Shown in pieces: positions 3,345 to 63,076 of a stretch of 64,000 bases of DNA. The stretch is from a virus. Its lineage: Duplodnaviria; Heunggongvirae; Uroviricota; Caudoviricetes. Position 1 is the first letter of the stretch. Every line of letters begins with the position of its first letter. Both the position numbers and the translations under genes were made by a program. Under the pieces are notes generated by a model. That model had not been told where the DNA came from, made no database searches, and saw only the letters and a program-made list of their open reading frames with translations. The DNA lies in IMG/VR virus record IMGVR_UViG_3300045988_162656; one strand, written 5' to 3'.

Positions 3345-3568
3345 TCGTCATCCTCATCCGAGTCATCCTCATCACAGGATGAGAGTAGTGGGTTAGTCAT
3401 TCGCCCTACTTGAGTGGCGTAGCCACGCCGACAGAGATTGCGCAGCACACTGTATATTTCGAACATCTCGGTTCGTTCATCGCCAACATCAAGCTCAGAT
3501 GCTATAGCGTGGCATTCAGTCGCGAGAGCCGATATTTTCTGAAATAACTCTGCTTTATTCACTCTTCG
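3341..3568 (-). CDS. small hypothetical protein with acidic C-terminal tail (DEDDSDEDDE), probable GTG start
   Basis: ORF 3341-3622 overlaps upstream gene; in-frame GTG at 3566-3568 preceded by aggag overlaps the upstream stop. Confidence 0.3.
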   Translation of the reverse strand, partial: RRVNKAELFQKISALATECHAIASELDVGDERTEMFEIYSVLRNLCRRGYATQVGRMTNPLLSSCDEDDSDEDDE

Positions 3569-4130
3569 ACTCCTGCGGAGGTTCTGGTAGCGGCATCCAG
3601 TGAGTTGCTTGCTCAATACCATTACCCGGCTTAATCGTTACATCTCCGCGCCGAAAGGTGATTCCGGTATAGCGTGCGGAGCATATTAGCGGTTCAACCA
3701 GAGAGCTATCGAAATTCACCGAAATAAGCACGTTCTGGCCCTTTTCAGGCATTCGCTCACTACAGCTTATCCAACCATCCGGAGTTACCGGATGGGGTCC
3801 AGCGAACTCGGGAATGTCAGGACCTTTTCTGATAGCTTTAGCCAGATCCAGCGGGTCATCGTAAAGCCAGTCGCCAGTTTGTGGGTGATTTGCTTCTGCA
3901 AGCTGCGCAGCCCATTCAAGACCATCTTTTTGACCTTGGAGATAATCAAGCGGCAACTCTTCATGATTACTTGCAGGTTCTGCACTATCAGCTTCGCGCC
4001 GCTTCTGTAGCTCTGCTGCCATCGCTCTCACGACTTCAACTGGTGCCCTTGCAGCAAACTCTATGTTGGTGATCAGCTCATTAAGATATTGCTCGCCTGG
4101 ATACTGTTTCTTATCGGTTATAGTGGTCAT
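3555..4130 (-). CDS. hypothetical protein, C-terminal DUF551-like region (GWISCSERMPE...VLIS)
   Basis: ORF trimmed to internal start MTTITDKK directly after upstream stop; domain call by recollection. Confidence 0.4.
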   Translation of the reverse strand: MTTITDKKQYPGEQYLNELITNIEFAARAPVEVVRAMAAELQKRREADSAEPASNHEELPLDYLQGQKDGLEWAAQLAEANHPQTGDWLYDDPLDLAKAIRKGPDIPEFAGPHPVTPDGWISCSERMPEKGQNVLISVNFDSSLVEPLICSARYTGITFRRGDVTIKPGNGIEQATHWMPLPEPPQESKSE

Positions 4131-14552: not shown

Positions 14553-15146
14553 CTAAGCAGCCTTCTTTGATGGTCTTTTTTTCCTGATCACATTCGCAGG
14601 ATCATACCCTCCCAGACTTTTCATGACGTCCAAAGGGATCTTGCTTATAGAGTGCCCAGCGTCCTGACAGAATCCTCGAAAAACAACGAGCATACTGCCA
14701 CCGGGGTTGATGTTTACTTCTACCTGACCCAAATTGACGTCAGGCTCGACAAACGCTACGCGGCCACCAGACAGAATAATCGTCTCATTCGCATACTCTG
14801 TTGCACGCTCATACCACTTTGTATCGAGGGATTGAGGAATTAGCATCACTGTAGTAACTCCGCGAGCCTGCTCACGTATAGCAGCATCAATCCAGGGGGA
14901 GATTTTGGAGTAGGGTGGATTGAGGAAGGCAATTGTACCTGGCTGTCCCCATTCAGATTTCAAAGCATCACGCTCAATGCCTATGAAATTAGGCAGCTTT
15001 GCGTTGTCCTTGTTGCAGGCAACGTCAACATCAAATGTCACTCCAAGATAACGTTGAATGGCAGAAAACAGCCAATCAGGTGTTCTCCAGAGGTCACGAA
15101 GAGAGTTGTCGCGCTTTCGCTGTTTGATTTTTTCGGCTGCAATCAT
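14553..15146 (-). CDS. phage-type Dam-like DNA N6-adenine methyltransferase
   Basis: DLWRTPDWLF and FLNPPYS motifs characteristic of small phage N6-adenine MTases. Confidence 0.75.
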   Translation of the reverse strand: MIAAEKIKQRKRDNSLRDLWRTPDWLFSAIQRYLGVTFDVDVACNKDNAKLPNFIGIERDALKSEWGQPGTIAFLNPPYSKISPWIDAAIREQARGVTTVMLIPQSLDTKWYERATEYANETIILSGGRVAFVEPDVNLGQVEVNINPGGSMLVVFRGFCQDAGHSISKIPLDVMKSLGGYDPANVIRKKRPSKKAA

Positions 15147-29531: not shown

Positions 29532-30176
29532 TTACAGCGCGTCAGTGGGCTTTTTACGCGCTGCGTTTATGCTTATGACGCCAGCTTTTGGACGTGGGTC
29601 AACAAGGTTAAGCTCTTCTTCGCTGTGGTATTCGAGGTCGAACTCACGTTTTACATGTCTGATGTAGATTGCGGTGAGCAGGCTATCTTTGGTCAGAAAG
29701 TGTCCGTAGGATTTGCGGATCACTTCTTCTACCTTCTCGATTTTCTCACCACCCATACAGAGATGATTAAACCGGCTGTGTTTCCGCAACATTTCGTCTA
29801 CTGGGCCTGAGTAAACCTTGTCTACTTTCCCAAAACGGATGATTTTTCCTGTGTCTGCGGATACGAGGCAAATCAGCTTGTCTGGTGATAAACGATCTCG
29901 CCACGTCACACCTGAACGGAGTGTGTTGAAGTAGGGGGCATCCAATCCGATGATCGGTTTACGAAATGCGAGTAATGGAACGTACCTGATGCAACTGTTT
30001 AAATGAAAATTCACACCAGCCTTATCAAGTTTAATTCTGGTTTCGTAGATCTGGCACTTCGCCGCTATACCGCAGATGTCACAAAGCAACTTCTGCTTAT
30101 TCAGGTTGGAATTTGATTCGATAGTGTAGGAGCCGTCTTCAAGACGACGAACCCAGCGCGTGCGTTTTAGATCCAT
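29532..30176 (-). CDS. hypothetical protein
   Basis: 214-aa ORF next to the replication origin. Confidence 0.4.
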   Translation of the reverse strand: MDLKRTRWVRRLEDGSYTIESNSNLNKQKLLCDICGIAAKCQIYETRIKLDKAGVNFHLNSCIRYVPLLAFRKPIIGLDAPYFNTLRSGVTWRDRLSPDKLICLVSADTGKIIRFGKVDKVYSGPVDEMLRKHSRFNHLCMGGEKIEKVEEVIRKSYGHFLTKDSLLTAIYIRHVKREFDLEYHSEEELNLVDPRPKAGVISINAARKKPTDAL

Positions 30177-30259
30177 ATGTCATTTTTCTGTGATTGTTAG
30201 CCGAGGCAACGATAACCCACCAGGTGCGCCGAAGGTAGTAAATGCCTGTTTTAATTATT

Positions 30260-30497
30260 CACATATCCACAGGATAGATCCTAATAAAGAGATCCATAGA
30301 TAGATCCTTATATAGATCAAATAAGATCCCCGATCGCTGTAAGCCGCGCCACGACTGGTCTGAAGTCATGTTCATGTATGCTGTCAGCGGTAATTGATAG
30401 TCTGTCAGCGGTTCACCGTATGCTGCCAACTGTTTTTGGTATTCTGTCAGCGGCAAATCAAGTATGCTGTCAGCGGTTGAATGACAAAGGTGTCCAC
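30260..30497 (+). promoter_or_regulatory. plasmid-type replication origin region: DnaA-box-like atatccaca (30273-30281), six GATC sites (30287-30345), five 16-bp iterons (30376-30477)
   Basis: motifs read directly; arrangement parallels P1 oriR/incC upstream of repA. Confidence 0.65.
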
Positions 30498-31592
30498 ATG
30501 TCCACAAAAAATAAAAAAGGTAAAAATAACAAAGAAGTAGAAGATAACATCGACAACTTTGAAGAAGGTTCCCTTGAATTGTACACAGGGGAACTTGTCC
30601 CTAATAGCAACAATACAGTCCAACCAATTGCGTTGATGCGACTGGGGTTGTTCGTCCCCACGCTTAAGGGAACAAAATACAGTAAACGTAACAAGCCAAA
30701 TGAGATCGATGCTTCAAAGGAGCTTGTCCAGCTCGAAGTAGCCCGTTCTGAAGGCTATTCCGATATCAAGATAACCGGTCCTCGTCTCGACATGGATCAT
30801 GATTTCAAAACGTGGGTGGGCGTTGTGCGTTCGCTGGCAGAATACGGCGAACCTAACGGTCGTGTCGAGTTAAGCATCACGAAATTTGCTAAGTTTTGTG
30901 GCTATCCATCGTCACAGATCCGCAAAACACTCCGCGACCGGCTTACAAACAGTCTTTTGAAGATCATGCGTACAACTCTGTCTTTCCAGAGAACGTATGA
31001 AGAAAAGAACGTCGACGGCTCTAACAAGATCTCGCTTCTGATGGTGCACCTCATCAATAGCGTGGACTACAACGAGCAGAAAGATACGGTGGTGTTCTAT
31101 GCAGAACCGAAGCTGGCCGAACTATATCGCTTTGACCATAAGGTTCTTTTGCAGTTAAAGGTTATCAATAAGCTACCACGCAAAGAAACAGCACAGGCTC
31201 TGTACACCTTCATCGAAAGTCTTCCAACCAAGCCTGCGCCGGTATCGCTTGCTCGATTGCGTGCGCGACTCAATTTGAGTAGCAGGAATGTCAGCTCGCA
31301 GAATCAGACTATACGTAACGGCTTAAAAGCTCTCCAAGATTTGGGCTATCTCGAATACAGCGAGATTAAGCGTGGGCGGTCGATCTATATCCAGATTCAC
31401 AGCCGCAATCCAAAACTCAAAGTCGCACCGCCAAAACCTGAAGACATCGAACCCAAAAAACCAGATGAGAAAGCTGGGGAAATTGATGCCAAACAGAACA
31501 TTATCAACAAGATAACCGAACTTTCGCAGAATTTGACGCCTGAAAATATCAAGATGATTGAGATCCTTTCCAATAGTCTCAAACTGCTTTGA
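30498..31592 (+). CDS. repA: iteron-binding replication initiator RepA-like
   Basis: 365-aa ORF (in-frame start after iterons, RBS aaagg) flanked on both sides by iteron arrays; lone plus-strand gene. Confidence 0.7.
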   Translation: MSTKNKKGKNNKEVEDNIDNFEEGSLELYTGELVPNSNNTVQPIALMRLGLFVPTLKGTKYSKRNKPNEIDASKELVQLEVARSEGYSDIKITGPRLDMDHDFKTWVGVVRSLAEYGEPNGRVELSITKFAKFCGYPSSQIRKTLRDRLTNSLLKIMRTTLSFQRTYEEKNVDGSNKISLLMVHLINSVDYNEQKDTVVFYAEPKLAELYRFDHKVLLQLKVINKLPRKETAQALYTFIESLPTKPAPVSLARLRARLNLSSRNVSSQNQTIRNGLKALQDLGYLEYSEIKRGRSIYIQIHSRNPKLKVAPPKPEDIEPKKPDEKAGEIDAKQNIINKITELSQNLTPENIKMIEILSNSLKLL

Positions 31593-32124
31593 TATGCTGT
31601 CAGCGGTGAAATGTATGCTATCAGCGGCTATTTTTCTGAAAAGTATGCTGTGAACGGTTAAAGATATGCTACCAGCGGTATAGTGAGATGAACGTATGCT
31701 GTGAGCGGTAAATCATCTATCACCACTCAATGCTCTGTCATACCTCCCCAGTGGTTACTAACCTCGAAGAGTGCATTCCATATAGGTTTGCGCTCACTAA
31801 CATTCTATTGCTATTGCGCTGATTGCTTGTAGTGAAAGGCATTTATTGCCTGCTACTCCCTGATAGAACGTATGCTGTCAGCGGTGTTTTATTGAGGAAT
31901 TTTTGTTTGGATATGCTATCAGCGGTAATTAATGGCATATGTCAGACATTCGTATGCTGCCAGCGGTAATTTTGTTCTGGTTATACCCATACCGGTACAC
32001 ATTATTCATGCAATGTCTTAAGTATGCTGTCAGCGGTAAAAAATCGAGTAAAGTATGCTGTGAGCGGTGAGATAGACTCTCGATATGCTATCAGCGGTAG
32101 TTGATTGTGTATGCTGTCAGCGGT
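31593..32124 (+). repeat. incA-like array of 12 iterons, consensus GTATGCTGTCAGCGGT
   Basis: 12 near-identical 16-bp direct repeats with irregular spacing immediately downstream of repA. Confidence 0.8.
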
Positions 32125-32171
32125 GACGACTATGAAATATGACTGCGGAACGTGCCGCAGTCAGTTTGCAT

Positions 32172-32384
32172 TTAGTGTATTTTCTTTAACAGACCCCAAA
32201 GTGTTCCGGCTTTTGTAGTCAGTTTTCCTGTTTCTGGATCGTACATACGCCATTCACGCCGCTGGTGGACGATATACCCATCTTCACGTTCCAGACGCTC
32301 AAGAATGCCAGGCTGCTTGAAACCCTTAGCACGCCAGTAGCCGCTTGTTTTCTCGATTTCCAGACCTGCCAGTGTTAATGCCAT
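32172..32384 (-). CDS. hypothetical protein
   Basis: 70 aa; ATGA-coupled to upstream gene. Confidence 0.35.
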   Translation of the reverse strand: MALTLAGLEIEKTSGYWRAKGFKQPGILERLEREDGYIVHQRREWRMYDPETGKLTTKAGTLWGLLKKIH

Positions 32385-32719
32385 TACCCAACCTCCTTGC
32401 AGTCATCGAAAAGGTAGCTTTGCTGAGAAGCGTGAACGCCATAGAAGCCCTTGTATTTGTTGTATACGAAGTGGTCTTCTCCGACGCCGGTTAATTTGCC
32501 ATTACGATTTGTGAGATATGGGGATGACAACACTCGATCGTCACGCACAACATAGAACTGGTCGCCGCTGTCTACGACCATCGCTCCATATGGTGCTTTT
32601 ATGACGTCGGTAAGAGCGCCATTCTTAACGTCGGCTACAGACATTTCACACTGATAAACAGTGGTGTCGGCCACAACGATCGAAGAAAGAAACAACAGCG
32701 CGAATGGGATGGTCTTCAT
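32384..32719 (-). CDS. hypothetical secreted protein (signal peptide)
   Basis: N-terminus MKTIPFALLFLSSIVVA; ATGA coupling to upstream small membrane gene. Confidence 0.4.
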   Translation of the reverse strand: MKTIPFALLFLSSIVVADTTVYQCEMSVADVKNGALTDVIKAPYGAMVVDSGDQFYVVRDDRVLSSPYLTNRNGKLTGVGEDHFVYNKYKGFYGVHASQQSYLFDDCKEVG

Positions 32720-49133: not shown

Positions 49134-50231
49134 AAAATTTAGACGAATAAGCTCTGTTGATAGACGATCTCCCTTGAATTTGTGGTCAATTTCGTCTAAA
49201 TCCGGTTGCTCTACGATTGATGCGATGTACGTTGAGAAACTTTCTAAGGCGTCTCGCATCTCGTCCATATAATCGTGCCGGTCGTAGACCCGATCTATCC
49301 CCTCAAGACTGTGGTTCATTATTTTGCGTGATACCTCCTGGCTTATACCTAATGCTGGGAAGTAACTACGCGCAGTACGACGCAAATCTCGAGGTGTAAA
49401 TGGCGCAAGCTCCATCAGTTCTGGTCGTTCCAGAATACGACGTAATGCCTGGGCTATTGCCACTTTAGACATAGGAAGGTCTTTCCCGATTTTTTTATTC
49501 GAAGGCACGAGCCACTGGCTGTCTTTACCGTATTCGAACAACTCTTCAATGCATGTGCGCATTAATGTGCTTAAAGGCAGCGAATGCTCACGTGCTGACT
49601 TGTTTCTCTTGCCTTGATTCCAAACTCCACGCTTAAGATTGAACTCACTTTTTTTAGCCCTCAGTACTTCGTCAGGTCGTCTTGCTGATACAAGACACAG
49701 CCTGGCCGCCCATTTTGTACCAGCGCACACATTGAAGTAGTCCCATATATTCCAGAACACCCATACCTCTGCGTCGGTCAGCTTCCGCTCGCGAGGTGTG
49801 GGCTTTGCGCCACCGGCAACTTTGTTTAGTGACATATCGTTTAACGGTGACACGTCTATCATCCCCTGGAAGGCGCACCAGCTAAGGAACTGCTTCATCA
49901 GAGAGAAAACGCGGCGGCCCATAACAATTTTGCCATCCAATATTAGAGGGTTGACCAGTTGGTTAACCATGAACCTATTAATGTCACTTACTTTTACATC
50001 AGCAATGTGCGGCAAAACATGTATCAAAATACAATGAACAGCGATCTCTGGCCGACGTCTGGTTATCAGCAGAGATAAGCGAGTGAATAACATGAATGCG
50101 TCCGAGAATATCATGTTATTGTTGATCTGTGAGATCATAATGGCCTGCATTTGAGATGCTCTTTCGAGATACTCAATTGCCTCTTTTGAGGTGTTTTCTG
50201 CTGCGCGTGCTCTGTCAAAGCTATTTTTCAT
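49128..50231 (-). CDS. tyrosine site-specific recombinase / integrase
   Basis: C-terminal catalytic region with TPRDLRRT and HSLEGIDRVYDRHDY motifs. Confidence 0.8.
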   Translation of the reverse strand: MKNSFDRARAAENTSKEAIEYLERASQMQAIMISQINNNMIFSDAFMLFTRLSLLITRRRPEIAVHCILIHVLPHIADVKVSDINRFMVNQLVNPLILDGKIVMGRRVFSLMKQFLSWCAFQGMIDVSPLNDMSLNKVAGGAKPTPRERKLTDAEVWVFWNIWDYFNVCAGTKWAARLCLVSARRPDEVLRAKKSEFNLKRGVWNQGKRNKSAREHSLPLSTLMRTCIEELFEYGKDSQWLVPSNKKIGKDLPMSKVAIAQALRRILERPELMELAPFTPRDLRRTARSYFPALGISQEVSRKIMNHSLEGIDRVYDRHDYMDEMRDALESFSTYIASIVEQPDLDEIDHKFKGDRLSTELIRLNFS

Positions 50232-50438
50232 TTATTGGCATTCACCTAGTTACGCTGATCACCTGTATAAGTAACCAGTATATTAGGCATTGATTCTTTT
50301 GGAATCAAGCTAAAATCTTTCATGCGGAAAATGATTCCATACCTAAAGAGTATGGAATCATTTTTTTCTGTAGAGCTAGTTTTAAATATTTGATTCGATA
50401 TGAAGCCAGGCAATTTCATGCCTGGCTGTTACTTTGTG

Positions 50439-52352
50439 TTAGGTTGGGTTGTTGATGCTAATGGTAAGTGTTTCGATAGCAAGATCATGAGTTTGGTTGT
50501 TTGTTATATCTGTTAAAACAAAAGCCTCATCACCAAGAGCAATATTGTCTTTAACCAGCTTGAATTTACTCCCCGCCTTGCCATCGAGAACGGGAATTAC
50601 AGTTCCTGTGCCTTTCTCATATTGCAACTCAAGAGTGTGCCAATTGTTGTCGTAGTCACCATATGAGTCTATCTGAACATTTCGATTATTGCCTGTCCTG
50701 TGCATCATAATGTTCAACTTGCCTCCAATTGTTTGAAGGAAGAAGTTAGCCAGAAACAGGCTCCCAGTACCGTCGAATGATATATCGTCAGCAACAGGTT
50801 TACTGGTTTTGTAATATATACCAAAGCCAAACTTAGCTTTTTTTGGATCAGGGTTTCCAGATAATTTAAACTTACAAAGTAATTTACCTCCATTCTCAAG
50901 AAGAGTCTGTGCTATGTCAGTAGCTTTACTGATCGTCCAAGTTTCGTTGGAAACCGCTTTAGTTAAAGCAATTGCTTTTCCGTTTTCAACTGACTGAATA
51001 TTTGCACCAGTTACAGTCCATCCTTGTTCAGTAGCGACATCACCACCAGCTCCAGTTAAGGAAATAACCGTTCGCGGGGTTGGAGTTGTGACAATGTTGT
51101 CATTTTTAGGTTGAGTAGGTTGTTCTTGTTTAATAATCTCACCTGTAACGCCATTCACAAAAGCAGATGATTTCGCTGAATGTGCAAGCAGCGCAGTTGC
51201 GAGACGATCAGATATTATTCCGCGTCGCTGCCATGAACCAAAATGACTCTCTCTACTCTCGGAAGTCCATGTTTTATTATCCTTGCGATGACCGGAACCA
51301 TAATAGCCAATAGATGTGATGTCTGGATCATCTGTAGGGCTATTGGTTAATACGTTATTATCATTCTCATCTTTCATGAATGGAACGAAATAAATTGCTT
51401 GTGAGGTTTTTCCCTTATAACCACCATAAACAATTTCGTACTGTTTTGGATATTTGTTTTTCCACCAGTGGGTCGTATCGCCACAAATCCAGGGTACATT
51501 TGCAGCACTTCCGAAAACACATTGTGCGTCGTATTGAGATAGCTCTTTTCTGAAACCTTCGACCATCTTGAGGAACAGTTCGTTATGCTGCGAGTACTTG
51601 CCAGTTGCCAAATCAGCTTCGCCTTGCATCCAGACAACACCAAGAAATACATTCTTTTTGTTTTTACTTAAGGCCGCTTTTGTTCTGGCTACAATATCCT
51701 TATACAAAGGAGTATTTAATCCCCATTTTAAAGATGATTCGATTGCACCTGACTCTTCATAATATTGGCCTTCAGAGCCTGTAACAGTGAAACCAGAACC
51801 ACCTCTTCCGCAAGGAACGAGCAAAATACCTGCGTTTGCTGGAATGAATGGTAATAGTTTTTTGCCAATGTGTAGTCCCTGACCAACACATCCATATTCA
51901 GAGTCGTTTGCTTTTGGATGCTTGAATTTAGTCATGTCTTGTACATCATGAAGACAGTGATCAGCGGGAATTATTTCATTGTACTTACAGGCAAAACCAC
52001 CAGGTTTAATATTGCTGCGTCGAGCTAACTGTTTTACGCGAGGATGTGGCCGATCAAAAGTTTTTGGCATAGGCAGTCCTTCGCCGTATGACATTGAGTT
52101 GGATTGACCTGCGATAGTAACTACATAATAATAGTCAGGCTCTTCATCTTCATTTGATACCGGTGTGGGCAATTGTGATAAATCACCAGATCGCACAATT
52201 GCTTGATTGTACGCATTTGGTCCGCCCTTACTTGGTTCAACAATGTTTGGTGACTCGAAAGGTTGCCAACCCTCTGCGATTTTCTTCGCAAGTTTTTCTC
52301 TAAGCTCTTTGCTTGATGATGCTGACAAAATATCATAGTCAATGAATGACAT
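50439..52352 (-). CDS. SGNH/SASA-family (sialate O-acetylesterase-like) esterase domain protein with C-terminal beta-rich domain
   Basis: GQSN motif (IAGQSNSMSYG) near N-terminus; 637 aa. Confidence 0.55.
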   Translation of the reverse strand: MSFIDYDILSASSSKELREKLAKKIAEGWQPFESPNIVEPSKGGPNAYNQAIVRSGDLSQLPTPVSNEDEEPDYYYVVTIAGQSNSMSYGEGLPMPKTFDRPHPRVKQLARRSNIKPGGFACKYNEIIPADHCLHDVQDMTKFKHPKANDSEYGCVGQGLHIGKKLLPFIPANAGILLVPCGRGGSGFTVTGSEGQYYEESGAIESSLKWGLNTPLYKDIVARTKAALSKNKKNVFLGVVWMQGEADLATGKYSQHNELFLKMVEGFRKELSQYDAQCVFGSAANVPWICGDTTHWWKNKYPKQYEIVYGGYKGKTSQAIYFVPFMKDENDNNVLTNSPTDDPDITSIGYYGSGHRKDNKTWTSESRESHFGSWQRRGIISDRLATALLAHSAKSSAFVNGVTGEIIKQEQPTQPKNDNIVTTPTPRTVISLTGAGGDVATEQGWTVTGANIQSVENGKAIALTKAVSNETWTISKATDIAQTLLENGGKLLCKFKLSGNPDPKKAKFGFGIYYKTSKPVADDISFDGTGSLFLANFFLQTIGGKLNIMMHRTGNNRNVQIDSYGDYDNNWHTLELQYEKGTGTVIPVLDGKAGSKFKLVKDNIALGDEAFVLTDITNNQTHDLAIETLTISINNPT

Positions 52353-52577
52353 AATCGTTACTCCTTTAACGATAAACTTTAGCTAAAATCGATACGATTT
52401 TAGCAGTTAAAAAACGACAATAAAATATAAGAGTAATGTATGAAAGAACAATAAAAATTGCGTAAATGGATATGTGTAAAATATGTGGAATTTCACACAC
52501 AGCGTTGAGCGGTCTGGTTTATGTTAGCGGAGTCTTAATCGAGTTGATTAAAAGGCCAAACCGCTCAACGCTGTGTC

Positions 52578-52664
52578 TGGCGGAGAGTAATGGAATCGAA
52601 CCATCATCGCTTGCGCAATGGGACGGTTTTCAAGACCGCTTGAGCACCATGCTCCCTACTCTCC
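52578..52664 (-). tRNA. tRNA-Ser (anticodon TGA), type II with long variable arm
   Basis: hand-folded: acceptor GGAGAGT/ACTCTCC, anticodon loop CTTGAAA, T-loop TTCGATT, 3' CCA encoded. Confidence 0.8.
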
Positions 52665-52888
52665 GGCCGTTGTGGTGGCCGGTACTGAATCTCCGGCATA
52701 CGGTGCAGCCAATTAGGACTACGGACGATCACCGCTCGCGAAAGGGAAGATTTGCGGCCGCATTTCCCTAACATCCAAGAAAGCTATCGCATTAGTCTGC
52801 GAATCCACCACAACGGTAAGATCACTACCTTTCGACCAGTCATTGTGCACATGAACGACGATTAACCGTAATGATCTTATCGTTGTAT

Positions 52889-52964
52889 TGGTGCCGGTTA
52901 GCGGACTCGAACCGCTGACATCCTGCTTACAAGGCAGGCGCTCTACCAACTGAGCTAAACCGGC
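52889..52964 (-). tRNA. tRNA-Thr (anticodon TGT)
   Basis: acceptor GCCGGTT/AACCGGC, D-arm AGCTCAGTTGGTAGAGC, anticodon loop CTTGTAA, T-loop TTCGAGT, CCA encoded. Confidence 0.85.
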
Positions 52965-52968
52965 AATT

Positions 52969-53055
52969 TGGTGGGGAGTGATGGAGTCGAACCACCCGAG
53001 TTGCAATGACAGTAGATTTACAGTCTACCCAGCTGCCCCTACGGACTAACTCCCC
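52969..53055 (-). tRNA. tRNA-Tyr (anticodon GTA), type II
   Basis: acceptor GGGGAGT/ACTCCCC, anticodon loop ACTGTAAATCT, long variable arm, CCA encoded. Confidence 0.8.
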
Positions 53056-53060
53056 TAAAT

Positions 53061-53135
53061 TGGCGATGGTGGGTGGATTCGAACCACCGACCAGTTGGTT
53101 AACAGCCAACTGCTCTACCGCTGAGCTACACCATC
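53061..53135 (-). tRNA. tRNA-Asn (anticodon GTT)
   Basis: acceptor GATGGTG/CACCATC, anticodon loop CTGTTAA, T-loop TTCGAAT, CCA encoded. Confidence 0.85.
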
Positions 53136-53895
53136 AATTCAGCACTGCCAGTATTTATTACTCAACAGTGCCAATCGCGGCGGTGTTAGTTTCTGCCAGG
53201 AAACGCACCGCTACTTGCACTTTTTCGTTAGTGTCAGACGCTTTCGACTTCTCTCAATAGAAGGCAAAATCTTTAAGTAGATGATGTTTCTGAGGACAGC
53301 ACCTACTTTGTAATTTATACAATGTGATGTATGGAATCATTTGTTGTGGAAAAGTGGTTAAACCTACACAACAATCCTGTCTTCACAACGTTGAGGCCAC
53401 TACTCCGATTGAATGTTTGCCCAACATGTTACATATCAACGCTCGCCGGTATCTCTGTGAATAGAACCTTAGAATTGATAAAAATGTAATGGCCTCAACG
53501 TTGTGTGCTGGCTAACCATACCAGCCGGGCTACGTCGCCGCTTTTTAACCCAGTATAAACGACATAATTGAACAAAATGACGTAACAGAATGGGCGGTCA
53601 GTGGCTAAGAATCCGGGAGTCATATGGAGTTGAAAATATACCGACCGCCCATTCTGTTACTTCATCGGAGGGAACATGAGTGTTCCCTCCTGCGTTCTGC
53701 AATCACACTCGCTCAGTGTGTCCCATTTCGGTAACGAGGCTGGAAACTGACCTCGCTGGTGTTTGGCTTATTAGGCTACTGCCAGATAGACTTCTTCGTT
53801 TGCACTTGTATTTAAGTTCAAACAGTCGCATCTCAACGAAAACAAAGTCATCTTATACACAAAGGATAAGTAAGTAAATACTTATCGATATGTTT

Positions 53896-54186
53896 TTATT
53901 CGGTTGTGACTTTTTTGATCAAGGCCACTCTACGACTAGGTGTTCTTGTGATGGTGGCAGTGAATCGTTTCGCTTGGATAGTAATGGTTTCGTTCTCCTT
54001 AAGTTGCCCGTAGCGAGTTTCCACCAGGGTGCCAAGACGCCACAGACCATCATCGATACGTTTATGACTAGCAAATTTAATCAGCAACAGTTTTACGACT
54101 AACTGACCTACGTAAAAGGCGAATGCGACTCCGACCGCTAAGAAATAGGTGGCCAACCACCAGTCCCAAGAAGTTAAATTGCTCAT
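53896..54186 (-). CDS. small membrane protein
   Basis: 96 aa, one N-terminal TM helix; ATGA-coupled. Confidence 0.35.
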   Translation of the reverse strand: MSNLTSWDWWLATYFLAVGVAFAFYVGQLVVKLLLIKFASHKRIDDGLWRLGTLVETRYGQLKENETITIQAKRFTATITRTPSRRVALIKKVTTE

Positions 54187-54335
54187 TTTCTAACCTTTGT
54201 TTCATGAACTACCCGATACACACGCTTTCCGATGCACAGTGTTTTGGTTTTAAGTTCCTGCTTAATTAAATCACGACAGATGCCGAAGCCGATAAGGAAG
54301 CCACCAATAAAAGCTAATGAGATGTATGGAATCAT
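54183..54335 (-). CDS. small membrane protein (50 aa; below ORF-track cut-off)
   Basis: hand translation MIPYISLAFIGGFLIGFGICRDLIKQELKTKTLCIGKRVYRVVHETKVRK; stop/start overlaps on both sides. Confidence 0.3.
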   Translation of the reverse strand: MIPYISLAFIGGFLIGFGICRDLIKQELKTKTLCIGKRVYRVVHETKVRK

Positions 54336-54547
54336 TTTAACACTCCTGATTCTACTAATTGCTGTAGCAATACTTTCCCTTTATCAGTTAACTGGTAGTT
54401 GGCTGAGCACCACGTTTCCGAAATGTTTGCAACCAACCCTAAACGCTCTAAATTAGCTCGCGTTTTAGGCTTCCAGTACTGAGGGAACTCCGGCCACTTA
54501 CTTATTTCATGAAGCGTTTCTTTCTCCCGTTTACTTAATACGATCAT
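54332..54547 (-). CDS. hypothetical protein
   Basis: 71 aa, coupled downstream of ligase gene. Confidence 0.35.
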   Translation of the reverse strand: MIVLSKREKETLHEISKWPEFPQYWKPKTRANLERLGLVANISETWCSANYQLTDKGKVLLQQLVESGVLK

Positions 54548-55866
54548 TCTTTATCTCCGATTCGATCTTCGGTATCGCGTAAGCAACGCGGCCATTTCAG
54601 TCGTGGGTGGCGTAAGCTGCCATCAGGTGTTTTCTCGTGACAATGAACCTCGACAATACGACCACGGTACTTCTCTTTGTTGTTCCAGATCTCGTCCAGA
54701 TATTTATGCTTAATGCCGCTCGCACGAACGATGACGCCGTTTTCAAGACGAATAACTATTTTTCCAAGCGTGTTGGCAAAACCAGAGTCCGGGTCGCCCG
54801 GCTCAAAATCGATAATTTCACCATCTTCTGAATCTTCGTCTTTTAACTTCCACCAGCTGCGGGTACGTTTAAACTCGTAAACAGAGTTCGGATCTTTGCC
54901 CATCTCCCCTTCTTCGTTATCGTCCAGGCGTTTCATGAAGCGTTCGATGAAGTCTTCGTGGCTATGGATGATATAGAACGGATGCAGGTGAATGTCTTGT
55001 GTGTAGCCTTCACTGCGATCGTTTTTAAACAACGCCACCAGCATAGCCAGGCGCTCTTTCAGCTTCATACCTGTCTTTGCATACTCTTTGGATTTAGCCT
55101 GTGCTCGCCATTCCGGTAGGAAGAAGTCGAAAACATGATAAATAGCGCCAATTGCCTGCACGTTCTTTTTGCGCAATGCAGATACGGACTGGTTAAATGA
55201 ACCGGCAGTTCCTTCACCATCGAAGAAGATGTGTTTGTGGCCTGAAAGTTTGCCTAATTCTAGCATTGCTGGCTTTAGGTGATCGAGAGACGTGATTGGA
55301 TTACCAGTACGAGAAAGGAAGTTAACCTCTTCCTCGTCAACAATAACCTCGCAAATTACTCGCAAACCATCGAGCTTAAGACTGCCAATCATCGGCCATT
55401 TTGCTTTAGGATTTGGCTTGAAGGGGTATTTGTCGCCTTTTTCTTTATACGGTGACGCCAGCTGCACCTCGAATTTCGGAATGGGATTTTCAAAAACCTT
55501 GTTGCATAGGCTAATCCCAACACCTGCTTTCGGGTCTTTTAAGAGGAAACGACGGAACACGTCCTGCCCATCGGCGCACATTGACGCCACGATAGACTCA
55601 ACAGCTGCTATTGCTGCGTTCCCCGTTAGCTCGCGAGAGGCCAGCTTATTCAGTACATCAATGGCTTTTTCGTCACTTGGGATGGACTCACTAAGCGGCT
55701 CTGCCACTTTGTATTTCTTTACCCCAAAACGGATGAAAGGGTTGAGCATCAATGAAACCATGCTTTGCTCGAAGTCATCCATGTTGGCCAATGCCTCTTT
55801 TTTTGCATTGGTTCCCATAGCTTTCATTTCGTCCAGCTTATGCTTAAGTGCGATCAACTTTTTCAT
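54544..55866 (-). CDS. ATP-dependent DNA ligase
   Basis: adenylation motif KLDGLR and OB-fold region; 440 aa. Confidence 0.8.
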   Translation of the reverse strand: MKKLIALKHKLDEMKAMGTNAKKEALANMDDFEQSMVSLMLNPFIRFGVKKYKVAEPLSESIPSDEKAIDVLNKLASRELTGNAAIAAVESIVASMCADGQDVFRRFLLKDPKAGVGISLCNKVFENPIPKFEVQLASPYKEKGDKYPFKPNPKAKWPMIGSLKLDGLRVICEVIVDEEEVNFLSRTGNPITSLDHLKPAMLELGKLSGHKHIFFDGEGTAGSFNQSVSALRKKNVQAIGAIYHVFDFFLPEWRAQAKSKEYAKTGMKLKERLAMLVALFKNDRSEGYTQDIHLHPFYIIHSHEDFIERFMKRLDDNEEGEMGKDPNSVYEFKRTRSWWKLKDEDSEDGEIIDFEPGDPDSGFANTLGKIVIRLENGVIVRASGIKHKYLDEIWNNKEKYRGRIVEVHCHEKTPDGSLRHPRLKWPRCLRDTEDRIGDKE

Positions 55867-56345
55867 TGTTGTTTTACCTCCATATGTTGATCGATTTGCT
55901 CATGTGTTTCTTTTGTTGTTTCTTCAAGCAACGCCGCATACACGTCAGTGATCGCTGTTTGTGATGTGGTGCTCTTCTTAACCATGCTATTAATCGTTAC
56001 ACTGTCACGTTTTCGTTTTAAAGTTCTGGCTTGTTTATTCCGTTCTTCAACCTCCTTAATGAGCGCGGTCATATCTTCGAAATACAGAGATTCTCCTTTA
56101 CGAATCTCTTCAACCATCATTTTTAACGCCTTGCATTTGCCTGCTTTGATAGCGGTTGCGCACGACTGGAATGAAGTTCGAGGAAGACGGTTTTCTTTGA
56201 AGGCAAGAATGGTGTGCTGGCAAACGGAGTAGCTGCAATATGCCGACTCACCGTTTATCTTTACTTCCTCACAACGAAGTGAATAACCATTATTTCCTGA
56301 AATAGAGGGGATTTTTGACAAATCAGCTTTCACAACTACCGCCAT
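55863..56345 (-). CDS. hypothetical protein
   Basis: 160-aa ORF overlapping ligase start by 4 nt. Confidence 0.4.
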   Translation of the reverse strand: MAVVVKADLSKIPSISGNNGYSLRCEEVKINGESAYCSYSVCQHTILAFKENRLPRTSFQSCATAIKAGKCKALKMMVEEIRKGESLYFEDMTALIKEVEERNKQARTLKRKRDSVTINSMVKKSTTSQTAITDVYAALLEETTKETHEQIDQHMEVKQQ

Positions 56346-56400
56346 AAATAATCTTGTACTTACCTATCGTTATTTGCGTAAAAAACGACGCGCGGAGAGA

Positions 56401-57177
56401 TTACCAACTTCCCCAGCTAATCATCTTGCGCTGATTGCTTTCTAAGCGATAGGGGGCAAGAAGCTCTGTGACATGATTGGTGGCGTATGATTTAGCCTCT
56501 TGCTCTATCATCGGTAATTCGTTAGCAATCCTGACCACCTTCCAAGCAAATTCCGCCATTACGCCATCACATGCCTTCCCAGCATCAATAACGATATGCA
56601 CCAGATCCAACTGGCTTTTGCACATGTCGCAAAGAGACGCATACTCACTCTCTCTGATTACATTTACGGCATCATTAGCCCCTTTATTAAGCAAGACTTC
56701 CAACAGATTTTTCGGGGTAACGAAATCTGCTTTCAGAGATAATGTCTTTTCACCACTTATCGAACGCAAGTACTCTTCGTAGTTATTCTTCATCAAACCG
56801 CTGCTGCGCATTGCTAGAACTGCTTCTTGAATGGCCGCTTCAATAGTTTCGTCGTTTGAAAGACAAAAAACGGTATTTGTGTAGATCACTCTGCCATCAA
56901 GCCATGCTCCAACCTGCACTTTAAGACTGAGCGGGTTTTCTTTGCTAATAAAAACAACTAATGCAGAACGTCGTGCACAAGAAGGTTCACCCCATACGTG
57001 TAACTTAACCTTCAGATAAGGTAGCCCCGGTAGCGGGATCTCGACCAAACGAGTGGCGATATGATCCATTGCTGTTTTTACCGCTTTTTCAATGATGTCT
57101 AGTCGATTGCTCTCGCTGATTTCTAAACCAGTTTTATCAATGATGTCGCAGGCTAATTTCTGAATTTCGTCTTTCAT
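56401..57177 (-). CDS. hypothetical protein
   Basis: 258-aa ORF with promoter-like palindrome upstream (57218-57238). Confidence 0.4.
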   Translation of the reverse strand: MKDEIQKLACDIIDKTGLEISESNRLDIIEKAVKTAMDHIATRLVEIPLPGLPYLKVKLHVWGEPSCARRSALVVFISKENPLSLKVQVGAWLDGRVIYTNTVFCLSNDETIEAAIQEAVLAMRSSGLMKNNYEEYLRSISGEKTLSLKADFVTPKNLLEVLLNKGANDAVNVIRESEYASLCDMCKSQLDLVHIVIDAGKACDGVMAEFAWKVVRIANELPMIEQEAKSYATNHVTELLAPYRLESNQRKMISWGSW

Positions 57178-57252
57178 ACCAACTCCTAGCTAACAGATGA
57201 AAGTATTCTCACAGAAAGATAAGTAATCATCTACTTATTTTAAAGGTGATTG

Positions 57253-58506
57253 TTATGATAGAGCCTTAATGCCCAAAACCTTGCTTTGCAACTCCAACTG
57301 TTTGGTATACGGTTTTGCCCGATAATAGGCTTTGATAATTTGTTCTGGCGTTGCACCGCCCGGGTCGAGTCCTTCCTCACCCAAACACGCAACTTTGACA
57401 TTAAGACCGATACTGGTCAGTCGCCTGGCTGCGGCCATCGTGTTGCGTATAGCTTGCTTTTCACTATCCCACATCATGATCACATTACGTAATCCACGCG
57501 CCTTGAGCGTCAGGAACGCGCCCAACTGATCTTCTGCATCCTGAGTGGTGTTGCCAGATAGATGCATCCCGAACGTTCCTATTGGCTCCACGTAATCACG
57601 TAATGTTTCTTCGTCGAAAATAGCTCGTTTGACCCCCATAACATCGAACGCACCCTCACAGACAACTACAGTCTGTTTGCCGACTGCATTATGGCCGTTG
57701 TAGAGAAATTTACCTGAAGCTGGAAGCTGCATAGGAAAGAGGTAGCGGCGTTCTGCTGTACCGGTAATGTCTCGTCCCTGAAATGTCTTCATTACCCCAT
57801 CCAGATCGTAAACCGGTATCAGTATTCGCATATCGAATATCTGCCCTTTTACCTGATCTGTATACGGATCTACATAAGCGTGCTTGCCTTCGACGCAGTA
57901 TCGTAGGTCAAAATACTTTGCCATTTCAGGTGATATGTTTCGTTCAACCAGATAATCTGGAAGACGGCCATCTATAGGAAGCTCGTAATGACGAGGGAGT
58001 GCAACTGGCCCCTCTAACTCGACTGTGCTTGCAAGCACTAGCTCTTCTTTCTTTGGTGCCCACCCCTGGGAAAGAAGAGCGTTCTGCACATATTCCTCGA
58101 ACTGTCGTCGTGATTTACCGCTGTAGTGCTTGAGGAAGACCAGCTTATTGAACTGAATCTCTTCGGGATGATCACCAGCGAAGCATTTGCCGACGCCACT
58201 GGTCAGATTGAAATATACCTTCCAGTTGGAGCTGCCGCATACCGGACACTCCTTGATATTCACTTCACGACCGCGAGTACTCACGCCTCCACGTCGATAA
58301 ACGATACCTTCAGTATCCAACCATTGTTCAAAATCTAATTCGGCAATTAGCTCTTTCAGCTCGCTCACGATAATTCCACTTTTAACAGGCAATATTGTGA
58401 CCAATCTAAATGTTGATATAACATAAAGGCTCATGTGTTTTTCTTTTGTGGTTTGGCAAAAGAAAAGTTGTTTCACCAATGAATCAAGCGTGGAGGTGTT
58501 CTCCAC
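57253..58506 (-). CDS. DNA primase (zinc-ribbon + TOPRIM)
   Basis: CPVCGSSNW...CFAGDHP zinc-binding region and VVVCEGAFDVMG TOPRIM motif. Confidence 0.7.
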   Translation of the reverse strand: MENTSTLDSLVKQLFFCQTTKEKHMSLYVISTFRLVTILPVKSGIIVSELKELIAELDFEQWLDTEGIVYRRGGVSTRGREVNIKECPVCGSSNWKVYFNLTSGVGKCFAGDHPEEIQFNKLVFLKHYSGKSRRQFEEYVQNALLSQGWAPKKEELVLASTVELEGPVALPRHYELPIDGRLPDYLVERNISPEMAKYFDLRYCVEGKHAYVDPYTDQVKGQIFDMRILIPVYDLDGVMKTFQGRDITGTAERRYLFPMQLPASGKFLYNGHNAVGKQTVVVCEGAFDVMGVKRAIFDEETLRDYVEPIGTFGMHLSGNTTQDAEDQLGAFLTLKARGLRNVIMMWDSEKQAIRNTMAAARRLTSIGLNVKVACLGEEGLDPGGATPEQIIKAYYRAKPYTKQLELQSKVLGIKALS

Positions 58507-58515
58507 GCTTATTTT

Positions 58516-59856: not shown

Positions 59857-59899
59857 GTGCTTTCCTTTGTTTTTTAAACAAATTGTTTTCTAGTATTAG

Positions 59900-60649: not shown

Positions 60650-60914
60650 CTGGTAGGTAGTTACTTACTTATCACAATGGACGGATGATAGCGACTGGTG
60701 TCAGTTTTTGGAAGTGAAAACGGAAGGGAGTTGTTCTGGTGGTGTCTTTTAAAAGACCTGCTTCCGTATATATTTAATAAGTTACTTATTATTTATATAC
60801 AGAAACAGGCTCCTAATGGATACCAAGAACAACATAATTTGACTCCAACTCCAGATGCTATGTCATTGACAGATTTATCAAGGGAGATCATGTTAGAATT
60901 AGTGTTTTAGCCTC

Positions 60915-62048: not shown

Positions 62049-62408
62049 TCAACCTTTCTTCATTAACTCGCGTTTAATTTCATCGGTACGCATCGTGACA
62101 TCGGCAGCAGTGATCGCCTCGTTAAGCTTCACGATGTCCTCGATTTCCTGCGGTGACTTCTCTGCCAGATGGAAAATAGCAGCACGAATCACATCAGAGC
62201 GGGTGAATTTCTCGAAGCGAGGGATGAACTTCATCATCTCCAGCAGTTCGAAGTATTCGTCCTCCAGTGACATTGTGCGGCTTTTAATTTTCTCTTTGCC
62301 ACGAGTCGGGCGTCCCTGTGGTCTGACTGGTTGGCGCAAAGGAGTTGTGTTCTTAGCCGGTGCATCAGACTCTTTGCGCTTTGCTAGGTCACCCATTTTC
62401 ATGGACAT
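62049..62408 (-). CDS. small basic DNA-binding partition protein candidate (ParG/ParB-like)
   Basis: 119 aa, basic N-terminus; stop overlaps nothing, start abuts parA stop; classic parA-small-gene operon layout. Confidence 0.4.
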   Translation of the reverse strand: MSMKMGDLAKRKESDAPAKNTTPLRQPVRPQGRPTRGKEKIKSRTMSLEDEYFELLEMMKFIPRFEKFTRSDVIRAAIFHLAEKSPQEIEDIVKLNEAITAADVTMRTDEIKRELMKKG

Positions 62409-63076
62409 TATTCTTCTTCCTCCAGACTCAACAGATAATCTACAAATTCTTCAAACTCGGCTTCCGCCTTTTTGTCGCGCTCGCTACCGGTCATTTCAAA
62501 GATAGAACGACCAGACTCTTCCGCATCATCATAGACGTTGCGGTTATATAGATTGACTGGCGCAGACTCGATGCCAAACGTCTCAACAATCTCTTTAGCC
62601 GCCAGAATGCGAGACACTTGTGATGGCAAAGCCGGGCACTGGTTCATGACCGCGCGGACCTTCACTTTATCGTTTACATTGCGAACATTGTCGATAATAG
62701 GATCGATGTCACGTAAAGATTTCAAATCACGACGCTTAGGACGCAGCGGGATAATGATAACGTCAGCCATCAGCATCGCTTGTCGCTGAATTTCGGAGTC
62801 GAAGCCACCAGCATCTACCACTACAAACTCAGCTCTACCCTGAAGCGATTTTAGGTGCTTAATGATGTCATCCTGAACGTATGCAAAAGGAATCAGCTCA
62901 AGGTCTTCGTTCTGTCGACGGTCTTCACACCAGCTCGTTGTCGTGCGCTGAATATCTATATCGGTAATATAAACCTTCTTCTTCTTTTTGACTTTCAGGC
63001 AAACGGCAATTTGCTGGGCAACGGTGGATTTGCCAGGCCCGCCCTTTGTGCCGCCAACCACAAAGATCTTGGTCAT
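62408..63076 (-). CDS. parA: ParA-family partition ATPase
   Basis: deviant Walker A GGTKGGPGKST; 222 aa. Confidence 0.8.
   Translation of the reverse strand: MTKIFVVGGTKGGPGKSTVAQQIAVCLKVKKKKKVYITDIDIQRTTTSWCEDRRQNEDLELIPFAYVQDDIIKHLKSLQGRAEFVVVDAGGFDSEIQRQAMLMADVIIIPLRPKRRDLKSLRDIDPIIDNVRNVNDKVKVRAVMNQCPALPSQVSRILAAKEIVETFGIESAPVNLYNRNVYDDAEESGRSIFEMTGSERDKKAEAEFEEFVDYLLSLEEEE

Follow-up and report, generated by a model that had tools for sequence, protein, structure and literature searches.

A probable P1-like plasmid-prophage replicon in the genome of an SSU5-supergroup phage-plasmid

We conclude with high confidence that positions 30255-32124 of the 64-kb stretch of viral DNA analyzed here (64,000 nucleotides; the window) are the plasmid-prophage replicon of an SSU5-supergroup phage-plasmid, and a close homologue of P1 oriR/incC-repA-incA and of RepFIB. 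We infer the replicon function from homology and distribution: the region has the anatomy laid out in Table 1, both its protein and its origin are homologous to those of P1, its iterons match its RepA by lineage, and it is found exclusively outside the chromosome.

Table 1. Features of the replicon and of the distant partition genes (positions in the window).
Feature	Positions	Strand	Basis or remark
Two tandem DnaA boxes, TTATTCACA and ATATCCACA	30255..30271	+	Outer end of origin
Six GATC (Dam) sites in AT-rich rAGATCC-type repeats	30277..30335		GATC positions, P1 alignment
G+C-rich spacer GCCGCGCCACGACTGG	30343..30358	+	Between GATC region and iterons
Five direct 16-bp iterons, incC-like	30376..30478	+	Spacing 21, 21, 21, 23 bp
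Two weaker DnaA-box-like 9-mers, GTGTCCACA and ATGTCCACA	30490..30506	+	7/9 each; straddle the repA ATG
repA, predicted iteron-binding replication initiator, 364 aa	30498..31592	+	Homology to P1 RepA
Downstream iteron cluster 1, five direct, incA-like	31592..31709	+	Spacing 21, 30, 21, 30
161-bp spacer between downstream clusters	31710..31870		Contains the ~60-bp conserved element
Downstream iteron cluster 2, seven direct, incA-like	31870..32124	+	Spacing 41, 41, 70, 31, 30, 26
9-bp G+C-rich hairpin	32140..32163		Terminator-like on both strands (consensus scan only)
Partner gene, 119 aa, presumed centromere-binding protein	62049..62408	-	Position only
parA, small Walker-type partition ATPase, 222 aa, ParF-like (type Ib)	62408..63076	-	Family and structure matches

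The gene that a sequence-only reading had called repA does encode an initiator homologue. BLASTP aligned its product with P1 RepA at 46% identity (129/278 aa, E 3e-86) over residues 20-284 of the 286 in the P1 protein, and because of this homology we regard the identity of RepA as settled. The protein also matches the Pfam family PF01051 Rep3_N (37.5 bits against a cut-off of 22.4) and PHROG 775 (E 5e-133), while an NCBIfam search with it returned no family. WH1 is the sole wing of the WH1-WH2 fold that Pfam detected in RepA, and a PDB search, run both with RepA alone and with a seven-sequence family profile, detected no initiator structure, so it is the Pfam WH1 match that suggests a two-winged-helix fold. 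At 364 aa versus 286 aa, RepA is longer than its P1 counterpart, which lacks the 31-aa N-terminal and 55-aa C-terminal tails found here. The start of repA is most likely the ATG at 30498 rather than a codon inside the iterons; this ATG is conserved, and it is annotated as the start in the PhiR41_1, Klebsiella, and E. albertii records. The alternative RefSeq start at 30378 reads through the iterons and is probably over-long. A sigma-70 consensus scan of the + strand in and near the upstream iterons (30376-30497) gave no promoter match, and the repA promoter candidates picked manually were too weak to assert; the P1 repA promoter (TTGCTA / TAGGAT) is itself weak by consensus. Autorepression by RepA is therefore argued by analogy.

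Upstream of repA, the parts of an origin follow one another in the order known from P1, whose features we read from its annotated GenBank record. The core aligns with P1 oriR at ~79% DNA identity (91/115 ungapped columns), with the DnaA boxes, the GATC heptamers, and the GCCGCGCCACGnCTGG spacer matched base for base, and blastn also found the core, at 82-83% identity, in 90-100-kb Escherichia plasmids. At its outer end lie TTATTCACA (30255-30263) and ATATCCACA (30263-30271), each agreeing with the DnaA consensus TTATCCACA at 8/9 positions; the upstream DnaA-box-like 9-mer noted earlier is thus present, but as two tandem boxes and not one. They line up with the tandem DnaA site annotated in P1 oriR and are kept in the Klebsiella relatives and in pCFSAN004176P_01. 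Together with the weaker pair at 30490-30506, they place DnaA boxes on both flanks of the origin iterons. In P1, too, DnaA boxes lie between incC and repA, and the Klebsiella relatives carry 9-mers at the same repA-proximal place that score 8/9 and 7/9.

Six GATC sites within 60 bp had been claimed, and six are found (30277, 30291, 30303, 30315, 30325, and 30332), spanning 59 bp in a cluster that is unique within the window, where the second-densest 60-bp stretch contains three. A Poisson estimate puts the chance expectation of stretches this rich in GATC at ~0.02. The A+T content of positions 30255-30336 is 66% versus 54% window-wide. Its counterpart in the P1 oriR alignment is the set of five annotated Dam sites, P1 having five GATC heptamer repeats versus six here, and the Klebsiella relatives have six sites with identical spacing. 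We presume that this stretch is the region of unwinding and of SeqA/methylation control. In the pairwise alignment, the adjoining G+C-rich spacer shares 15 of its 16 bases with P1 oriR. A consensus scan of the replicon for IHF found no site, and the cumulative GC skew showed no switch at the origin, a result that is uninformative here because the skew tracks gene orientation in this DNA.

The iteron is a 16-bp unit, rTATGCTGTCAGCGGT, as supported by the information profile. When the window was searched with TATGCTGTCAGCGGT at up to 3 mismatches, 21 matches were obtained against 1.47 expected in shuffles, and 0 of 100 shuffles attained this number. All 17 matches that fall within 30377-32124 are on the + strand. 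As previously counted, five of them precede repA (starts at 30377, 30398, 30419, 30440, and 30463; the third is degenerate, with 3 mismatches), and exactly twelve follow it (31593-32124), all direct and grouped 5 + 7. The five-iteron upstream layout is also present in the Klebsiella relatives, in which the downstream iterons are likewise all on the + strand. Cluster 1 begins at the repA stop codon, and every relative that we examined has a downstream array starting there. These repeats are conserved to the same degree as the origin iterons, and their number varies: four other records, 96.8-98.5% identical, have 12 copies like this DNA, the Klebsiella relatives have 9, phage PhiR41_1, which is without the last three copies of cluster 2, also has 9, and pCFSAN004176P_01 has ~4, while in NZ_CP062914.1 an IS91 is inserted behind the first downstream cluster. 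A comparison of Klebsiella, pCFSAN004176P_01, SSU5, pMT1, and P1 revealed that the iteron sequence tracks the RepA lineage. The RepAs of Klebsiella (85% identity) and pCFSAN004176P_01 (87%) use the identical iteron, while those of SSU5 and pMT1 (48%) use TATCCACTGTAG-type repeats and P1 uses ATGTGTGCTGGAGGG.

The parallel with P1 oriR/incC-repA-incA drawn in the sequence-only reading holds for the protein, the core, the iteron spacing, and the array at the repA stop. P1 (and P7) share with this DNA the succession of DnaA boxes, GATC repeats, GC spacer, five iterons, repA, and an array at the stop; the incC spacing is 21, 21, 21, 22 versus 21, 21, 21, 23 here, close to two helical turns in both, the first incA iteron likewise starts at the repA end, and P1 is likewise a temperate phage kept as a plasmid. 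The two systems differ in the iteron itself, which is GATGTGTGCTGGAGGGAAA (19 bp) in P1 and shares with the 16-bp unit only TrTGCTG. They differ also in the downstream array, since P1 incA has nine iterons, three direct and six inverted, while the twelve here are all direct and lie in two clusters separated by 161 bp. Mixed orientation of the incA iterons is a detail of P1, not a feature that defines the family; with all twelve repeats direct, the geometry of looping and handcuffing may differ from that in P1. A further difference concerns partition. P1 has a type Ia parABS beside its array, while 3' of the array here there are convergent small genes without assigned function and no large ParA bearing an N-terminal DNA-binding domain, no ParB, and no parS; the ParF-like partition genes are ~30 kb away, and their ParA, the only one, has 222 aa versus ~398 aa (from a 1,197-bp CDS) in P1. 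Finally, P1 is a P1-type myovirus, while the phage here is an SSU5-type siphovirus.

The 161-bp spacer contains a non-iteron element of ~60 bp (31745-31805) with GTGGTyACTAAC repeats, which the replicons of SSU5, pMT1, and Klebsiella have conserved. Support for an RNA gene within this spacer is lacking, as an Rfam search of 30000-32400 returned no family and RNA folding of both spacer strands gave z-scores of only about -2.2. Nor is there support for the ~60-bp element as the centromere, as the window shows no enrichment of the GTGGTTACTAAC motif outside the spacer, the vicinity of parAB included. Beyond cluster 2, the hairpin listed in Table 1 sits between the iteron array and a convergent 70-aa gene.

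A parA gene with a small partner had been pointed out at 62049-63076, and both genes are there; the pair is ParF-like, not P1-type, and it does not adjoin the replicon. The ParA protein has the deviant-Walker-A motif KGGPGKST, matches NCBIfam ParA_partition over its full length (E 1.9e-33, with a score of 115.7 that is below the curated cut-off of 180), the Pfam families MipZ, AAA_31, and CbiA, and PHROG 164, labelled ParA-like, and has TP228 ParF (4dzz) and ParA (5u1g) as its closest solved relatives (both E 1.2e-10). The start of the 119-aa partner gene overlaps the parA stop, and from this gene position we presume that the partner is the centromere-binding protein. Searches with the partner returned no Pfam family and no relative in the PDB; its sole family match is a weak one to the ribbon-helix-helix aCcr1 (E 2e-4, below cut-off), and it matches PHROG 5111, to which no function is assigned. 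The pair resembles TP228 ParF/ParG in combining a small ATPase with a small partner gene through overlapping stop and start. It differs in that the similarity is low (E 1e-10) and in that the partner does not reach the threshold for membership of ParG or ribbon-helix-helix families. A centromere repeat search around parAB (61950-63260) yielded only short, two-copy, chance-like matches.

The proposal that the phage can be maintained as a low-copy plasmid prophage fits the distribution of this DNA. The 2-kb replicon region is 100% identical to that of p09EL50 (from E. coli O104:H4) and of several other plasmids, 99.2% identical to that of phage PhiR41_1, and covered over at least 80% of its length by 121 plasmid records. 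Among 5,426 complete E. coli genomes, 120 contain the replicon, at 185 places, all on plasmids and none on a chromosome. The matching records are circular plasmids of ~100-120 kb that carry genes for capsid, portal, terminase, and tail, and the replicon is retained in shortened derivatives of 62-76 kb. From ~22.5 kb to at least 50 kb the window is base-for-base identical to p09EL50, and over its right third Shigella sonnei plasmids match at 99.1% versus 98.9% for p09EL50. The same four kinds of phage gene are present on p09EL50, and its RepB-family gene is the sole plasmid-type initiator annotated on it. The RepA of pECOH89, which was physically isolated as plasmid DNA, is reported to be identical to that of p09EL50 (PMC3999498), and membership of the SSU5 supergroup has been described (PMC3999498, PMC7969092). 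SSU5-like elements are recognized phage-plasmids, and their rep gene is typed IncFIB in plasmid-typing databases. For Cyrano, a related element of the SSU5 type, 5.5 copies per cell have been measured, and it makes virions (PMC9928086).

Comparison with these relatives shows which parts are shared. The elements p09EL50, pECOH89, and PhiR41_1 have essentially the same replicon, apart from the shorter downstream array of PhiR41_1. In SSU5, Yersinia pestis pMT1, and E. coli Cyrano (pLF82), the replicon occupies the same genomic slot, with a 214-aa gene upstream and a 70-aa and a 111-aa gene downstream. Their RepA proteins are homologous (48%), of similar length, and end in a C-terminal tail with the motif L-[TS]-x-E-x-[IL]-x-x-[IL]-E-x-L that is also found in RepA here; their repA, like the one here, is flanked by iteron arrays, while the iteron specificity differs. 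The ~60-bp element is also common to them but in the opposite orientation, and in SSU5 the downstream repeats run in both orientations, with an apparent duplication of the origin core upstream. The element is thus conserved across lineages with swapped iteron specificity, and the tail motif is common to both iteron lineages. With RepFIB of F-like plasmids, the replicon appears to have in common the RepA family and iterons on both sides, and some public annotations name these proteins RepFIB replication protein A. An 81%-identical version of it, with the same iteron, lies in a 34.7-kb plasmid beside an IncFII replicon, a sopAB-like pair, and ccdAB. Unlike F-like plasmids, the DNA around the replicon here is a phage genome. 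We considered pCFSAN004176P_01 as a natural single-replicon test and rejected it, because its co-resident IncFII replicon makes it uninformative on autonomy.

By homology with P1, from which we draw each biochemical step, we propose the following mechanism. RepA monomers would bind the five phased iterons at 30376-30478, and host DnaA would bind the tandem boxes at 30255-30271 and possibly also those at 30490-30506. RepA and DnaA together would open the adjacent AT-rich GATC-repeat region, where the host helicase and replisome would be loaded for theta replication. Through the six GATC sites, initiation would depend on Dam methylation, and an origin that has just been replicated and is still hemimethylated could be sequestered by SeqA. 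By binding the origin iterons, RepA would repress its own promoter, and the twelve downstream iterons (31592-32124) would lower the copy number by titrating RepA and by RepA-mediated handcuffing with the origin iterons, both in cis and between sister plasmids. Segregation would be handled separately by the ParF-like ATPase and its small partner protein (62049-63076).

A variant of this scheme keeps the origin and repA as proposed and makes the downstream array a RepA sink only, or a set of partly dispensable, recently expanded repeats. We think this unlikely. The direct orientation of all 12 repeats, unlike P1 incA, the irregular spacing of cluster 2, and the change in repeat number between near-identical elements (12, 9, ~4, or IS91-interrupted) speak for it, but a dispensable array would sit uneasily with its position at the stop codon in every relative examined and with repeats conserved as well as the origin iterons. 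Nor does a sink exclude handcuffing: in P1, titration and handcuffing both depend on the same repeats and are not mutually exclusive.

The genes neighboring the replicon, which encode an exonuclease, Pol III alpha, a DnaB-like helicase, a toprim protein, and a ligase, could instead suggest that the RepA-iteron unit drives lytic (vegetative) phage replication and not prophage maintenance. This is very improbable, as an iteron origin with a second, negative array is a hallmark of stringent low-copy control, and the closest characterized homologue, P1 oriR, is a prophage origin (described in GenBank as the origin of plasmid replication). P1 uses a separate origin for its lytic replication. Moreover, the 34.7-kb plasmid with IncFII, ccdAB, and the sopAB-like pair is a non-phage plasmid with the same replicon type, and the shortened 62-76-kb derivatives have retained it. 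We found nothing in favor of the replicon being an inactive relic, with the element maintained by another mechanism, and we find this scarcely credible, as repA is intact, with 85-87% protein identity in Klebsiella and other relatives that keep the same iterons unchanged, no other plasmid-type initiator is annotated on p09EL50, and the DNA is extrachromosomal in all 120 genomes. The plasmid-prophage replicon accordingly remains our preferred reading.

Beyond it, we entertain a speculation that will quite probably prove wrong, namely that SSU5-supergroup replicons carry a control layer absent from P1, in which a phage or host factor would dock at the 31745-31805 element and interact with the RepA C-terminal tail motif, linking copy control to lysis-lysogeny, and in which iteron number would tune copy number. 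If this is true, the variation in iteron number (12, 9, ~4, and IS-interrupted) might set the copy number and, through it, gene dosage for cargo such as blaCTX-M-15.

The replicon belongs to the known p09EL50/pECOH89 family, for which a P1-like build is already known, so that what is given here is a correct reading of a described replicon and not a discovery, and the understanding of how such replicons work is unchanged. The practical value lies in annotation. Public records of the p09EL50/PhiR41_1 type mark only the rep gene ('RepB family'), with no origin, iterons, DnaA sites, or GATC sites, while homology with P1 now fixes the base-level positions of the origin, the two iteron arrays, and the DnaA and Dam sites. 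The element occurs in ~2% of complete E. coli genomes and on a plasmid of an O104:H4 strain, and some of its relatives carry blaCTX-M-15. The base-level map provides a framework for incompatibility, curing, and copy-number work on SSU5-type phage-plasmids.

The sequence-only reading of this DNA had placed a complete P1-style replicon at 30260-32124, with five iterons before repA and twelve after it (31593-32124), and both arrays were borne out when 29900-32500 was read directly and repeat and pattern searches were run. With up to 3 mismatches allowed, TATGCTGTCAGCGGT has 21 matches in the 64-kb window, compared with 1.47 expected from dinucleotide-preserving shuffles (0 of 100 reached 21), and 17 of the 21 fall within 30377-32124, every one on the plus strand. 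When the 17 copies are profiled position by position, the information content is limited to a 16-bp unit, rTATGCTGTCAGCGGT. The downstream copies form two clusters separated by a 161-bp spacer. Before the iterons, the DnaA-box-like 9-mer noted earlier is present but not single, as two boxes abut there and a weaker pair lies at the start of repA. The six GATC sites reported within 60 bp were all recovered. This cluster is unique in the window, where any other 60-bp stretch has at most three sites (about 0.02 such windows would be expected by chance from a Poisson estimate), and it is 66% A+T compared with 54% overall. The element also has a DNA adenine methyltransferase of its own, of the phage type (Pfam PF05869 Dam, E 5e-38), encoded at 14553-15146 on the minus strand. 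This enzyme could bear on the GATC-rich origin; phage P1 likewise encodes a methylase.

Features of the replicon and of the partition genes, in window coordinates
Feature	Number	Position	Strand	Spacing (bp)	Remarks
Outer DnaA boxes, abutting	2	TTATTCACA 30255-30263; ATATCCACA 30263-30271			left of upstream iterons; each 8/9 to consensus
GATC sites	6	30277-30335			between outer DnaA boxes and upstream iterons
Upstream iterons	5	starts 30377, 30398, 30419, 30440, 30463	+	21, 21, 21, 23	
Inner DnaA boxes, weaker	2	30490-30506			straddle ATG 30498; 7/9
repA		30498-31592	+		364 aa
Downstream iterons, cluster 1	5	31593-31709	+	21, 30, 21, 30	
Non-iteron spacer element		31745-31805			about 60 bp
Downstream iterons, cluster 2	7	31871-32124	+	41, 41, 70, 31, 30, 26	
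Partner gene		62049-62408	-		119 aa
parA		62408-63076	-		222 aa

In the ORF table the repA frame runs from 30378 to 31592 (404 aa), and the same start is used by RefSeq/PGAP for p09EL50, a plasmid of E. coli O104:H4 str. 2009EL-2050, and in many other records. The ATG at 30498 is the more plausible start, because the longer reading passes through four origin iterons, whereas the ATG at 30498 is the annotated start in phage PhiR41_1, Klebsiella, and E. albertii records, is preceded by AAAGG, is kept inside the motif CCACATGTCCACA in relatives with differing upstream sequence, and is the first base of many rotated assemblies. Pfam Rep3_N recognizes the protein at 37.5 bits, above its cut-off of 22.4, as does PHROG 775 at E 5e-133. 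The BLASTP search proposed as a check found initiator homology, with 46% identity to P1 RepA (129/278, E 3e-86) spanning residues 20 to 284 of 286 in the P1 protein. Among phage records, tblastn found relatives in P1, P7, SSU5, Cyrano, and a set of Klebsiella phage-plasmids. The "replication helicase" label given to P1-type RepA in PHROG 775 and in the RefSeq phage records NC_005856, NC_018843, and NC_050152 was rejected as wrong, these proteins being iteron-binding initiators.

The mirroring of P1 oriR/incC-repA-incA holds in the order of parts through the second array, and both RepA and the origin core are homologous. The P1 record lists a tandem DnaA site, five Dam sites, five incC iterons, repA, nine incA iterons, and a type Ia parA-parB-parS, with the repA promoter within the incC iterons and the first incA iteron beginning on the final base of repA. 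The window follows this order up to the second array. The likeness is more than architectural: when 30255-30376 was aligned globally with the core of the P1 origin, 91 of 115 ungapped columns were identical, among them the DnaA boxes, the rAGATCC repeats, and a GCCGCGCCACGnCTGG spacer. By blastn, the origin core was also found in 90-100-kb Escherichia plasmids at 82-83% identity. The differences from P1 lie in the iteron, the downstream array, the ends of RepA, and the partition locus. The P1 iteron is GATGTGTGCTGGAGGGAAA, and only TrTGCTG is common to the two. Downstream, P1 has three direct and six inverted iterons, while the twelve of the window are split by the spacer and all direct, and this orientation leaves room for a pairing geometry unlike that of P1. 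P1 RepA lacks the tails of the window protein, namely 31 N-terminal residues rich in lysine and asparagine and 55 C-terminal residues (310-364; window 31425-31589) in which a proline- and acid-rich linker is followed by a short motif at the end. Finally, the type Ia parABS of P1 abuts incA, but no par operon adjoins the window replicon.

The parA gene and small partner gene claimed at 62049-63076 both exist. They lie 30 kb away from the replicon and appear to form a partition system resembling type Ib, not the type Ia parABS of P1. Among proteins of solved structure, the ATPase comes closest to the plasmid TP228 proteins ParF and ParA (E 1.2e-10), and its full-length match to NCBIfam ParA_partition (E 1.9e-33) scores below the curated cut-off. 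The partner matched no family above threshold and only weakly a ribbon-helix-helix family, and a search of 61950-63260, which takes in the pair and its flanks, turned up no centromere-like repeat array.

Klebsiella phage-plasmids whose RepA is 85% identical have the same iteron and layout: five upstream iterons spaced 21, 21, 21, and 23 bp and flanked by DnaA boxes, six GATC sites spaced as in the window with one further site nearer repA, and nine direct downstream iterons starting at the stop codon. SSU5 and pMT1 have, in the same genomic slot, a RepA of 48% identity and different repeats. Binding site and protein thus change together, as expected of an initiator and its iterons. In SSU5 (L006) the repeats downstream lie in both orientations, and upstream of repA there are apparently two tandem origin cores about 375 bp apart (1780-2000 and 2155-2400), each with a DnaA-box-like sequence, GATC repeats, and an iteron set. 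Despite this divergence the RepA tail motif L-[TS]-x-E-x-[IL]-x-x-[IL]-E-x-L (LTPENIKMIEIL in the window, LSKEELAILEEL in SSU5 and pMT1) is common to these proteins and spans both iteron-specificity lineages. Likewise, the spacer element, in which two GTGGTyACTAAC repeats stand about 40 bp apart alongside a ACTAACCT/AGGTTwGT inverted repeat, is kept in SSU5 and pMT1, in opposite orientation, despite their different iteron. Copies lie at 3639-3700 in SSU5, 3426-3484 in comparison sequence L009, and about 3205-3265 in L007; in a Klebsiella relative the element is placed after the array. It has no Rfam match, no strong RNA fold, and no further copies in the window.

E. coli copies of the region keep the 5+12 arrangement down to 96.8% identity, with exceptions. 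PhiR41_1 has nine downstream iterons rather than twelve, the last three having been lost by an 87-bp deletion between two identical iterons (L002 4061-4151 aligned with window 32023-32124), and this natural variant could serve in tests of copy control. In the plasmid NZ_CP062914.1 (L014 1212-2712), an IS91-family transposase gene (1504-2712) directly follows the first downstream cluster, interrupting the array at about window 31829, with no further iterons within the 2.8-kb stretch examined. An 81%-identical replicon with fewer repeats occurs in pCFSAN004176P_01 (L012/L015), a 34.7-kb non-phage F-type plasmid; it shares the window iteron, its tandem DnaA boxes are perfect, and it has five GATC sites and four iterons detected both before and after repA. 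Its neighbors are an IncFII repA, ccdAB, a site-specific integrase, and a sopAB-like pair. Because that plasmid also has the IncFII replicon, it was ruled out as evidence of autonomous replication.

The 2-kb region is 100% identical to p09EL50 and several other plasmids of about 110 kb and 99.2% identical to Escherichia phage PhiR41_1, and matches spanning at least 80% of it occur in 121 plasmid records. It was present in 120 of 5,426 complete E. coli genomes, at 185 places on plasmids and none on the chromosome. Between about 22.5 kb and at least 50 kb, the window shows no base difference from p09EL50, whose record has genes for the major capsid protein, portal, terminase, and tail and no second plasmid-type initiator. 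The window is nonetheless mosaic relative to p09EL50: left of about 22.5 kb indels shift the coordinates, and the right part (50000-64000) matches Shigella sonnei plasmids at 99.1% and p09EL50 at 98.9%. According to its genome announcement, pECOH89 encodes the same RepA as p09EL50, was isolated as plasmid DNA, and comes from a family of phage-like plasmids related to SSU5 and pHCM2 (PMC3999498). Pfeifer et al. assigned such elements to the SSU5 supercommunity of phage-plasmids (PMC7969092). For related SSU5-type elements virion production has been shown (PMC9928086; PMC9600943), and one of them, Cyrano, had a measured copy number of 5.5 per cell (PMC9928086).

Taken together, the anatomy, the P1 homology, the relatives, and the plasmid-only distribution confirm what the sequence-only reading observed and support its interpretation as a P1-style replicon; by its sequence it belongs to the P1/RepFIB kind. 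Control through oriR, incC, and incA is established from work on P1 and summarized in the annotated P1 record. By homology, we propose that RepA monomers would occupy the five origin iterons and DnaA its boxes, upon which the AT-rich GATC region would open and the host replisome be loaded. Initiation would need Dam methylation, with hemimethylated sites sequestered afterwards. RepA at the origin would repress repA (a consensus scan gave no repA promoter), and the downstream array, through titration and through pairing with the origin iterons, would reduce copy number.

An identical replicon has been sequenced many times; it is recognized as the module for replication in an established family of phage-plasmids and serves as a typing marker. 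A 2025 preprint points out that SSU5 (IncFIB) replication genes are already in plasmid-typing databases, and IncFIB(H89-PhagePlasmid) is a routine type name in surveillance papers. The least ordinary remainders are the conserved spacer element and the conserved C-terminal motif of RepA. The base-level origin map and the differences from P1 are a useful annotation rather than a new kind of system.
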